Below are positions 7,220 through 9,134 of a stretch of DNA of 64,000 nucleotides, one piece after another. Every line of letters begins with the position of its first letter. Positions within the stretch are counted from its first letter, which is position 1. This DNA comes from Escherichia coli (GTDB taxonomy: Bacteria; Pseudomonadota; Gammaproteobacteria; Enterobacterales; Enterobacteriaceae). The position numbers and the translations under genes are program-made. The DNA lies in NCBI RefSeq assembly GCF_030384885.1, contig NZ_CP128613.1; one strand, given 5' to 3'. The notes below the pieces were generated by a model. The model saw only the letters and a program-made list of their open reading frames with translations, did no database searches and was not told where the DNA came from.

Positions 7220-7317
7220 ACTCCTGAGCAGGCGGCACTATGCCGCTTTCATAGGAGTTCTGAATGCTGGTGCTTTCTGTATGGCATAACCATGCCTCTA
7301 ACGGTTAAGTGCTTGCA
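7220..7317. repeat. 98-bp direct repeat, copy A
   Basis: About 94% identical to 9037-9134 in the same orientation; contains nested inverted repeats (ctcctg...caggag and gcggca...tgccgc). Overlaps the last codons of the HigA-like gene. Confidence 0.85.
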
Positions 7318-7588
7318 GCACATGTTGCGGATCATTGGCAATCGCTCGCAGCAAAGCCTTTGCAGGCCCGGTCGGTGAACGCCGCCCCTGCTCCCAGTTA
7401 CGCAACGTGTCTACGCTTACGGAAATAAGATCGGCAAATTTAGATTGTGACAACCCTGAAGCACGGCGTATTTCTTTGATTTTCATAGCATCAACTTCAA
7501 AAGTCCGTGAAGGCTGTCGCGTTCCTTCAATAATTTCATTCATCTGGGCCATGCTGTGAGTCAACCGCTCAAAAAGTGCCTTATCCAT
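7298..7588 (-). CDS. HTH (XRE-type) antitoxin, HigA-2-like
   Basis: 96-aa ORF with a helix-turn-helix segment (IKEIRRASGLSQSKFADLISVSVDTLRNWEQGRRSP), immediately downstream of and abutting the toxin-like ORF. Confidence 0.8.
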   Translation of the reverse strand: MDKALFERLTHSMAQMNEIIEGTRQPSRTFEVDAMKIKEIRRASGLSQSKFADLISVSVDTLRNWEQGRRSPTGPAKALLRAIANDPQHVLQALNR

Positions 7589-7900
7589 TTACCACCTCGT
7601 ATTTAACAACCGGAGCATTGCTTTTTCCTGGGGAGACAGATCATCTTTAATACCCTTACGATAAATAAGCAGTAATCTGATCTCATAATGTTTAACCTGA
7701 TGAAAGTAAATAACCCTGACACCAGCACGTTTCCCCTTTTCTCCTGAGACCCATCGAACCTTTCTTAACCCACCAGTTTCAGGTATTACCTCACCGTAGT
7801 CAGGATTCAAGGCCAGGAAAAACTGAAAACGACTGAATTCATCGTCATTCAGCAGTTTTTGAACATCTTCTGGGAAAATTTCCGTTTCGATGAAGAGTAT
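7589..7900 (-). CDS. HigB-2/Gp49-family (RelE-superfamily) toxin-like ORF; no canonical start codon upstream of the conserved N-terminus; possible pseudogene or non-canonical start
   Basis: Called ORF 7589..7810 starts at a TTG. The frame stays open upstream to a stop at 7943-7945 and encodes ...VILFIETEIFPEDVQKLLNDDEFSRFQFFLA..., which resembles this family's N-terminus, but with no ATG/GTG/TTG. The 7900 boundary (an ATA codon) is a guess. Confidence 0.6.
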   Translation of the reverse strand: MLFIETEIFPEDVQKLLNDDEFSRFQFFLALNPDYGEVIPETGGLRKVRWVSGEKGKRAGVRVIYFHQVKHYEIRLLLIYRKGIKDDLSPQEKAMLRLLNTRW

Positions 7901-8015
7901 AACTGTACGCCATTGGCTTAGAGTAACAATCCTTTTTGTACGTCATTGACGTACCCCTGAAACCACTAGCTTACTGATAGTGCTACAGCAAAACCACGTC
8001 TCTGCCGAGTTTGTC

Positions 8016-8041
8016 TTTACATTTGCGAGGCGCTTTCCAGA
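8016..8041 (-). promoter_or_regulatory. Conserved cis-element copy 3 (tttacatttgcgaggcgctttccaga) in the divergent region between the toxin gene and the esterase gene
   Basis: Matches the core of copies 1 and 2 with 2 mismatches over 21 bp; flanks diverge after ccaga. Confidence 0.4.
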
Positions 8042-8086
8042 TTTTCCACGCCCGTGAATTTCCCTGTATCCATCCAGTAAAAACGG

Positions 8087-9037
8087 GTGTATAAAACTGT
8101 ACATTCATACAGCAAAATGAGTTCTACTATGGCACTGGAAAAAGGAATTGCAGAGTTAGTCGAAGAGTTTATCGCTGCGGGTCGCCCCTCATCGCGTCAA
8201 CAAAGTATTGCGCAGCGCAGGGAGGGCTATATCGCCAGCGCTGTCCTTGCGGGTGAGACAGAAACGCGGGTAGATATTCAGACTATCGAACTTGAAGCGA
8301 TGACCTTACGAATAGTGTCGCCGCTGAATGCCCCTACATTACTCCCGACGATAATTTATTACTACGGTGGCTGTTTTGTTAGCGGCGGGTTCGCAACTCA
8401 CGACAACCAGCTGCGCCAGTTAGCCTATTACGGGCAATGTCGGGTTATTGCCGTCCAGTATCGGCTGGCACCGGAACATACTTTCCCCGCCGCCCATGAT
8501 GATGCGCAGCGAGGTGCAGAATTAGTCTGGCAACACGCCGAACGACTCGGCGTTGATAAACAACGGATAACTCTCGCCGGTGACAGTGCAGGTGGGCATC
8601 TGGCGCTGGTAACTGCTTTGCGATTAAAGCGTGCTGGCGAGTGGCAACCAGCACAACTCATCTTAATTTATCCTATGCTTGATGCGACTGCGCATTTCGA
8701 AAGCTACATACGCAATGGTCACGATTACATCATCACACGCGACACTTTACTGAGCGGCTTTGAGATGTACCTGCCAGGCATTGAACGCAGGCATCCTGAA
8801 GCCAGCCCTCTTTGGCGCGATGATTTCAATGGCTTGCCGCCTGTACATATCATTACCGCTGAATACGACCCACTTTGCGATGAAGGTGAAGCGTTGTATC
8901 ACCGCATGACAGAGCAAGGAGTGCAATGCACCTGCCAACGCTACCTTGGCGTTATCCACGGATTTTTTCAGTTAGGTGGTATCAGTGAGGCTGCGCGATC
9001 GGCGCTACGGGATGTGGCCTGGAGAGCGGGAAGGTAA
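8087..9037 (+). CDS. Alpha/beta-hydrolase, hormone-sensitive-lipase-family esterase (Aes-like)
   Basis: Oxyanion-hole region YYYGGCFVSGG, nucleophile elbow GDSAGG, C-terminal DPLCDEG and HGF segments. GTG start at 8087; alternative ATGs at 8117 and 8129. Confidence 0.8.
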   Translation: MYKTVHSYSKMSSTMALEKGIAELVEEFIAAGRPSSRQQSIAQRREGYIASAVLAGETETRVDIQTIELEAMTLRIVSPLNAPTLLPTIIYYYGGCFVSGGFATHDNQLRQLAYYGQCRVIAVQYRLAPEHTFPAAHDDAQRGAELVWQHAERLGVDKQRITLAGDSAGGHLALVTALRLKRAGEWQPAQLILIYPMLDATAHFESYIRNGHDYIITRDTLLSGFEMYLPGIERRHPEASPLWRDDFNGLPPVHIITAEYDPLCDEGEALYHRMTEQGVQCTCQRYLGVIHGFFQLGGISEAARSALRDVAWRAGR

Positions 9038-9134
9038 CTCCTGAGCAGGCGGCACTATGCCGCTTTCACAGGAGTTCTGAATGCTGGTGCTTTCTGTATG
9101 GCATAACCATGCCCCTCGCGGCTAAGTGCCTGCA
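9037..9134. repeat. 98-bp direct repeat, copy B
   Basis: Same orientation as copy A; lies in the convergent gap between the esterase and the phosphatase-like gene. Confidence 0.85.

Follow-up and report, generated by a model that had tools for sequence, protein, structure and literature searches.

The direct repeats of the yiiE-fabY region of Escherichia coli: probably a nadS gene end duplicated at a recombination seam

Overview

The stretch of DNA analysed here, called the window throughout, is a 64,000-nucleotide piece of an Escherichia coli chromosome (contig NZ_CP128613.1), practically identical in sequence to strain 2013C-4282, and the element in question is a 98-nt sequence, R, which occurs in it twice in the same orientation, as copy A (R_A) and copy B (R_B). 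Both copies belong to a variable part of the chromosome that is bounded by yiiE (5587-5835) and fabY/yiiD (11435-12424), where the order is yiiE, a 179-aa open reading frame (ORF), 92-aa and 70-aa ORFs, R_A, the antitoxin gene nadS, a toxin gene, an esterase gene, R_B, a 637-aa ORF and fabY (Table 1). The best explanation that we can offer is that R is the tail of nadS together with its 3' untranslated region (UTR), duplicated at a recombination seam between two alternative gene blocks; we put the probability of this reading at roughly 0.7. It corrects a tempting misreading of the locus, in as much as the "cassette" of toxin-antitoxin (TA) and esterase genes between the repeats is ancestral DNA and it is the flanks that are newcomers. 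The repeats offer a clean, datable case of alternative gene blocks stitched together at the yiiE-fabY hotspot of E. coli, and little for the discovery of mechanisms.

The repeat pair and the nadS fossil

The initial annotation of this DNA had described the pair as direct repeats at 7220-7317 and 9037-9134, and its factual statements all hold. The copies are 98 nt long, agree at 92 of 98 positions (94%, 6 mismatches) and are spaced 1817 bp apart; a repeat search of positions 6000-10500 returns them as the only strong direct-repeat family, and a 32-nt core of R is found at just two places in the whole window, the expectation from 100 shuffles being 0. Both copies contain the nested inverted repeat CTCCTG..GCGGCA-CTA-TGCCGC..CAGGAG. 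Copy A does overlap the antitoxin gene, by the stop codon of nadS (7298-7300) and 17 further coding bases, and its left arm does provide, as AGGAG on the minus strand 7 nt upstream of the ATG (7213), the Shine-Dalgarno (SD) sequence of the 70-aa ORF. Copy B follows the esterase gene directly: its first base is the last base of the stop codon TAA (9035-9037). At 7283-7296 and 9100-9113 the copies carry GGCATAACCATGCC and GGCTTCGCCATGCC, respectively, alternative alleles that are three adjacent changes apart and that each make a different perfect 5-bp mini-hairpin (GGCAT/ATGCC or ATGGC/GCCAT).

The right-hand 20 nt of R_A encode the end of the NadS protein, ..QALNR-stop. NadS has orthologues at 82-88% identity in several genera, among them Salmonella, Citrobacter, Kluyvera and Enterobacter; they end in ...QAL(R/S/N)x, others in ...ALSR, and one from Pseudocitrobacter (P0060) ends exactly in ...QALSR. 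R_B is a fossil of the 3' end of nadS and of its 3' UTR, because the nadS tail is still recognisable in it (QALSR) but the stop codon has been replaced by GAG. From this stub it also follows that the island which carries the 637-aa gene must have replaced most of a nadS-toxin-esterase block.

In Salmonella, Citrobacter and Kluyvera the same place holds the order fabY-(second higBA)-esterase-toxin-nadS-fdhE, and the proteins of these genera are 86-88% (NadS), 74-75% (esterase) and 67-69% (toxin) identical to those of E. coli. R-like sequence, yiiE, the 70/92-aa ORFs and the 637-aa gene were not found in these loci. Since it occupies the same position in the three genera, the TA-esterase block is ancestral syntenic DNA and not an inserted mobile cassette; what is new in E. 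coli is the yiiEF-L segment to one side of it and the low-GC island with the 637-aa gene to the other. The idea of an inserted cassette is contradicted within the species as well, as ~2300 E. coli genomes carry the block with copy A only.

Haplotypes and the esterase-R_B junction

The states of the region were defined by comparing the window with fetched loci (numbered L001 and so on). Hap1, with the order yiiE-L-R-nadS-toxin-esterase-51 bp-fabY, is the state of the ~2300 genomes just mentioned (e.g. UTI89, Nissle, 55989 and O103:H2). Hap2 has the order yiiE-L'-R-637-fabY and is without the TA and esterase genes; it is found in ~700 genomes (e.g. O157:H7, 042 and IAI39), so that the strains with a single repeat and no cassette that the initial annotation had proposed to look for do exist. 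Hap3, the state of the window, combines the two blocks with two repeats, and exactly 329 genomes have two R places. Hap0 has no R: K-12 has a deletion equivalent to 6697-10955 of the window, and of the 637-aa gene it keeps no more than the initial ~164 bp. The TA-esterase block is usually accompanied by copy A alone, and copy B goes with the 637-aa gene. A short left flank, L' (525 bp between yiiE and R), recurs in Hap1, Hap2 and some Hap3 loci at 93-99%, and the two-copy architecture with the long left flank is present in ~294 genomes.

The junction between the esterase stop codon and R_B falls on an AACTCC microhomology (6 nt; 11/13 at best). The five two-copy loci that were read (the window, L001, L011, L015 and L021) have the same join, TAA followed directly by CTCCTG, and they also share a linked G 25 nt upstream (GTGGCC vs GTTGCC); single-copy genomes have TAACTCCGGACC at the junction position. 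A query that runs across the junction from the esterase through R_B into the 637-aa gene is covered to at least 80% in 329 genomes. The shared join, the linked G in the five loci and the number of genomes that contain the junction point to a single illegitimate recombination event, and the divergence of up to ~6% around the junction indicates that this event is old. One copy of R thus holds a recognisable, inactivated gene fragment, and a unique microhomology junction is common to all carriers; by these two features R is a fossil gene-end duplication at a recombination seam, which is ordinary genome history.

The 51-bp spacer between esterase and fabY in Hap1 contains AAAAGGTTTTCAGATTGAAAACCTTTT, with a GTTTTCA..TGAAAAC palindrome (L002 9160-9225 in strain A20, considered with L030 and L033), and this palindrome is also found beyond the esterase, by the second higBA, in Salmonella and Citrobacter. 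As the palindrome is common to the spacer and to other genera, the Hap1 flank is ancestral and the esterase-R_B junction is derived. The sequence AAAAGGTTTTCAGATTGAAAACCTTTT looks like a relic of the repeated palindromes, putative operators, beside the second higBA pair, which is still present between fabY and the esterase in Salmonella and some Citrobacter.

R_A alleles match those of single-copy TA-type (Hap1) loci, and R_B alleles are identical to those of single-copy 637-type (Hap2) loci: the R_B of the window shares v1 with AST85, and that of L015 shares v10 with L024/L025. Chimeric alleles (v11 and the mosaics v3 and v4) show crossovers within R, and R therefore serves as a crossover site; in L029 the left part of R is B-like, the right part, beside nadS, is A-like, and the flank is of the Hap2 type. 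Insertion sequences have entered the region independently in two strains: an ISL3 element lies between toxin and esterase in strain A20 (L002 6938-8158), and in ECNB21-M121 an IS5/ISKpn26 element (L005 6064-7115) halves R and removes most of the 637-aa gene.

Based on these comparisons we propose a history that would start from the ancestral order yiiE-L-R-nadS-toxin-esterase-fabY, which is still the order in the Hap1 genomes. In another lineage the low-GC island with the 637-aa gene would have replaced nadS(5')-toxin-esterase and left R with a dead nadS tail in the arrangement yiiE-L'-R-637-fabY. The two-copy tandem would have arisen once, through an illegitimate join at AACTCC directly after the esterase stop. 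These steps may have followed one another in two ways: the island could have replaced the block before an illegitimate join between Hap1 and Hap2, the product later spreading by homologous exchange (Model I), or a tandem duplication of the segment from R to the esterase at the microhomology could have come first, after which the island took the place of the second unit and R x R deletions recurred (Model II). Allele identities and region-wise identity matrices give a mosaic picture, in which the loci fetched do not separate Models I and II. The repeats would serve passively in RecA-dependent deletion or allelic exchange, as a substrate and not as a mobility device, and copy B would merely sit between the convergent esterase and 637-aa genes.

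Copy number and distribution

Among 5426 complete E. coli genomes, 3369 contain R, at no more than two places per genome and always at yiiE-fabY. There was no match in phages, and the four matches in "plasmids" are all E. coli records of 1-5 Mb, true plasmids being without R. A conserved 24-mer was scanned for in one genome per species (100,044 species), an exact-pattern scan which diverged copies of R would escape, and it was found only in E. coli and in one low-coverage contig of 445 bp, which belongs to a Micromonospora assembly and resembles a contaminant. A metagenome scan gave 17 contigs with R, all of them from the same locus. R does not qualify as a dispersed repeat family or as a mobile element, since its copy number is low, it is confined to a single locus, and it was found in no phages, true plasmids or other species. 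The initial annotation had asked for the copy number and context of the repeat, and had named a ubiquitous family at many unrelated loci as the outcome that would speak against it; in the genomes searched R keeps to one locus and is never dispersed.

RNA structure of R

A promoter-like site with a 10/12 match to the consensus lies just upstream of the toxin gene (L002). The minus strand of R is certainly transcribed from this site, and R is the 3' UTR of the operon. Hairpin 1 is stable on both strands and holds the AGGAG of the 70-aa ORF (minus strand). Behind it, the minus strand continues with UUUUGCU in most alleles, and with UAUUGCU in R_A and UUACCUU in R_B of the window. In the minus-strand transcript, hairpin 1 would end or stabilise the operon mRNA, and it would mask the ribosome-binding site (RBS) of the next, decaying 70-aa ORF. 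Of the two arms of hairpin 1, the left one is hypervariable and exists in 5 versions, and the right one hardly changes, T/C at R position 33 being its only variation. In the R_B of L011 (3098-3195, strain elppa9), three clustered substitutions relative to window 9044-9048 (AGCAG to TGAAA) turn hairpin 1 into a perfect 17-bp palindrome, a change that, judging from its pattern only, is like a quasipalindrome template-switch mutation.

The second 17-pair helix, that of hairpin 2, is kept in 12/12 alleles, with 98.6% of cells paired. About 46 of the 355 paired cells, as counted from the pair table, are G-U pairs, which are lost in the mirrored helix of the minus strand; it is because the helix depends on G-U pairs that hairpin 2 is predicted for the + strand only and that this strand folds better. 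There is also a 14-codon ORF on the + strand of each repeat (7264-7308 and 9081-9125), which reads MLVLSVWHNHASNG or ...APRG and has an AGGAG 6 nt upstream. Its start, stop, frame and 6-nt AGGAG spacing are intact in 12/12 R alleles; conservation is confined to the first seven codons, those behind them varying freely, and this ORF is probably fortuitous.

Among the 12 alleles, a number that gives low power, covariation is limited to one pair with a double change, equalled in 351 of 500 shuffles. Nucleotide diversity within Hap2 is 0.054 in R and 0.04-0.06 in the flanks, i.e. equal. In Rfam, R had no match at the gathering threshold when the whole window was searched, and a search of 6900-9400 at E<=10 gave matches of chance level only (E>6). 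Taken together, the lack of covariation, the flank-level diversity and the lack of an Rfam family mean that there is no positive evidence for R as a selected RNA element.

Alternative explanations

Some observations weigh against a nadS gene end duplicated at a seam, or against parts of that reading. A consensus terminator scan calls no terminator at R in the three haplotypes, and the U-tract behind hairpin 1 has only 4 U and is interrupted in the window. The fold of the + strand is more stable (z -3.5/-3.7, as compared with -1.3/-2.0 for the minus strand), and no known transcript of copy A covers the + strand. The nadS relic in R_B differs from copy A at 5/21 positions, which is above the rest of R and implies an old or foreign nadS allele. 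Finally, the 637 region falls into three clades that are ~94-96% apart, two of which hold both Hap3 and Hap2 loci, and such mixed clades are explained equally well by allelic exchange and by R x R deletions that recurred among the descendants of an old two-copy ancestor. A history of this kind, possible although we do not favour it, would make the two-copy state the older one: it would have formed by tandem duplication of the segment from R to the esterase, the island then replacing the second unit, and RecA recombination between R_A and R_B would have repeatedly deleted the 1817-bp TA-esterase segment and thus given the ~700 R-637 genomes, TA addiction slowing the loss. The single-copy loci have the exact geometry of such a deletion product and R alleles identical to R_B alleles (v1, v10), the L' flank is shared by single-copy and some two-copy loci, both states occur inside two separate 637-gene clades, and the one junction found in all 329 two-copy genomes, with its diverged surroundings, speaks for an old architecture. 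However, homologous replacement of whole haplotypes gives the same pattern, a pure-v10 single copy derived from L015 (R_A v9, R_B v10) needs a crossover within the first 7 nt, and the effect of addiction is an inference only. Moreover, a synthetic query for the excision product, made of the left flank of this strain, R and the 637 flank, reached at least 80% coverage in 0/5426 genomes, despite the ~294 two-copy genomes with the long flank. The precise excision that the initial annotation had envisaged is accordingly possible in principle, but the product expected from the architecture of this strain is not seen among these genomes.

A duplicated gene end also has to be weighed against readings in which R does something or moves. 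It is very unlikely that the two copies of R are maintained as a functional RNA or small-protein module, i.e. a structured + strand RNA, which would be cis-antisense to the 3' end of nadS and the start of the 70-aa ORF, and/or the 14-codon ORF. The z values of the + strand, the conserved helix (helix 3), the 7/9 transitions at paired sites that keep + strand pairing, and the ORF with its intact start, stop and AGGAG spacing agree with such a module; against it speak covariation that does not exceed that of shuffles, the lack of a promoter-like site upstream on the + strand, a diversity of R equal to that of the flanks, a C-terminal half of the peptide that changes freely, no Rfam family, and the hypervariable left arm of hairpin 1. 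We would give as little credit to a working two-way RNA module, in which hairpin 1 hides an RBS on each strand, that of the 70-aa ORF on the minus strand and that of the 14-codon ORF on the + strand, the + strand provides a G-U-dependent hairpin antisense to the 3' end of the antitoxin gene, and the two copies are held by TA addiction; if this were true, addiction would kill the cells that delete the segment between the repeats. The small RNA Esr41 of enterohaemorrhagic E. coli was considered as a lead and rejected, as it lies in O-island 43 and not at this locus. By far the least probable reading, to which we assign almost no weight, is that the repeats are the ends of a mobile or site-specific element: a target-site duplication, a miniature inverted-repeat transposable element (MITE) or IS200/IS605-like element, an integron attC site, or an attL/attR pair. 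At first sight several features suggest it, since hairpin-bearing direct repeats bracket a 1.8-kb gene block, "empty" sites exist, the PGAP annotation calls half of the neighbouring gene a transposase, and the GTTAAGT of copy A fits the R' consensus of attC. But R has no copy outside this locus, no ORF of the locus matches a recombinase or transposase family, the "transposase" label is unsupported, the protein having a predicted SopB-like phosphatase fold, and the bracketed block is ancestral in other genera. The target duplications of transposons measure 2-14 bp, which 98 bp far exceeds; with no transposase and an ancestral block, the target-site duplication suggested by the initial annotation is not borne out, nor is its small non-autonomous element, as R occurs at no other place, is not accompanied by a transposase or integrase and lacks terminal inverted repeats. 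A dispersed repeat or MITE was rejected on the count of at most two copies per genome at one locus in 5426 genomes, and the att sites of an integrative island on the lack of an integrase or recombinase match in the ORFs between yiiE and fabY. The geometry is also wrong for att sites: intact nadS is inside the bracketed block and abuts R_A without an insert, and the fossil tail in R_B is on the far side of the esterase, 1.8 kb upstream of the operon. The integron attC site was rejected as well: the heptamer GTTAAGT is found in copy A only, where it is adjacent to and not opposite TCTAAC, copy B has neither, and there is no integrase. What stands of the earlier interpretations is the recombination scar, supported by the dead nadS tail and the unique microhomology junction, and, more loosely, the duplicated terminator or 3'-end module, in the sense that R is the 3'-end module of the toxin-nadS operon.

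Comparison with known systems

The closest parallel to R are gene-end fossils at island seams, including those made by homology-facilitated illegitimate recombination, with which it shares a dead gene end, a 6-nt microhomology, a junction of single origin and low-GC foreign DNA on one side; in the case of R, either duplication or replacement may have come first. The attL/attR sites of islands resemble R in being ~100-bp direct repeats that include the 3' end of a gene, and in the existence of single-copy strains. They differ in that R has no integrase, an intact gene inside a bracketed segment that is ancestral, and no other site. With REP/BIME, ERIC/IRU, RSA and Box C elements and MITEs, R shares a length of ~100 bp, imperfect palindromes and an intergenic position, but members of these families number tens to hundreds per genome, whereas R has one or two copies, always at one locus, and is a quarter coding. 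Chromosomal TA modules, e.g. the TA cassettes of superintegrons, are reported to stabilise neighbouring DNA against deletion. The locus resembles these in that a TA pair lies inside a segment deletable between direct repeats and the deletion product with the long flank is unseen, although here the missing product may reflect rarity or sampling. The repeats are a simple substrate for asking if a chromosomal TA protects its neighbourhood from deletion.

Gene content of the locus

The features of the locus are collected in Table 1. The only trace of the locus that we found in the literature is a remark on the variable yiiD-fdhE position, where the TA is noted as lying in a locus that K-12 lacks (PMC7232551).

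Table 1. Coordinates (window numbering) of R, its parts and the neighbouring genes
Feature	Position	Strand	Remarks
R_A, functional 3' end of the toxin-nadS operon	7220..7317	.	stop + 17 coding bases (7298-7317) + 78 nt 3' UTR/intergenic to the SD of the 70-aa ORF
Hairpin 1 of R_A	7220..7258	either strand	imperfect 17-bp palindrome CTCCTGAGCAGGCGGCA-CTA-TGCCGCTTTCATAGGAG
Hairpin 2 of R_A	7265..7317	+	17-pair helix, predicted on + strand only; antisense to nadS 3' end
R_B, fossil copy of the R module	9037..9134	.	between esterase stop and 3' end of the 637-aa gene
nadS relic in R_B	9114..9134	-	reads ..Q A L S R, then GAG at the former stop
Esterase-stop/R_B junction	9035..9049	+	TAACTCCTGAGCAGG here vs TAACTCCGGACCAGG (or TAACTTCGGACCTGG) after the esterase stop in single-copy genomes
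70-aa ORF downstream of R_A	7001..7213	-	phrog_4499
nadS, NadS-family helix-turn-helix antitoxin, 96 aa	7298..7588	-	NF041265, 60.7 bits vs cutoff 60
Toxin, RelE/ParE-like, 103 aa	7589..7900	-	PGAP naming, phrog_5869, weak Pfam RelE match
Alpha/beta-hydrolase esterase, hormone-sensitive-lipase type, 302 aa	8129..9037	+	
637-aa gene, predicted SopB-like CX5R phosphoinositide phosphatase fold	9206..11119	-	low-GC island, yiiE-proximal border = R_B

The 637-aa gene, whose island has a GC content of ~0.38, deserves a separate comment. Its protein has no match in Pfam, NCBIfam, PHROGs, PADLOC or the PDB sequences, and a word search finds relatives in E. coli and Shigella only. An exhaustive phmmer search gives ~16 full-length homologues with 21-35% identity, which share a near-invariant G-C-K-S-A-K-D-R-T, a Cys-X5-Arg P-loop; this motif is the SopB/IpgD signature (PMC9647168). 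The P-loop is found together with a SopB-like catalytic fold in the structure prediction, the combination that characterises SopB/IpgD-type proteins, and the protein is thus predicted to be a SopB-like CX5R phosphoinositide phosphatase. The identification is owed to the exhaustive profile search and the structure prediction, annotation from sequence only having given none. This strain has an intact copy of the gene; in O157:H7 it is broken, and K-12 has lost almost all of it. The gene had been unannotated or labelled a transposase before, and we consider the phosphatase assignment a more valuable by-product than the repeats themselves.

On the other side of R_A, the 92-aa and 70-aa ORFs (6661-7213, minus strand) are intact in the window (compared with L003, L006 and L009). 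Most lineages have the short left flank, which lacks window 6770-7151 and has only a truncated or frameshifted 70-aa ORF. An RL..(L/I)RRR stretch occurs in both the 92-aa and the 70-aa ORF, which are possible paralogues. The 179-aa ORF (6054-6593, + strand) has no family match; its region is fully covered only in strain 2013C-4282 among the 5426 complete genomes and is also present in one metagenome contig (L027), and other strains have a 127-bp remnant of it that is ~70% identical. At the edge of the variable region, beside yiiF, there is an Rfam match to the small RNA ES036 (CssrF) at 5001-5043 on the minus strand (45.8 bits), and the other Rfam matches in the window (CsrC, Spot 42, ES222, naRNA4, StyR-44 and the rrn operon) are those expected for this part of the chromosome.

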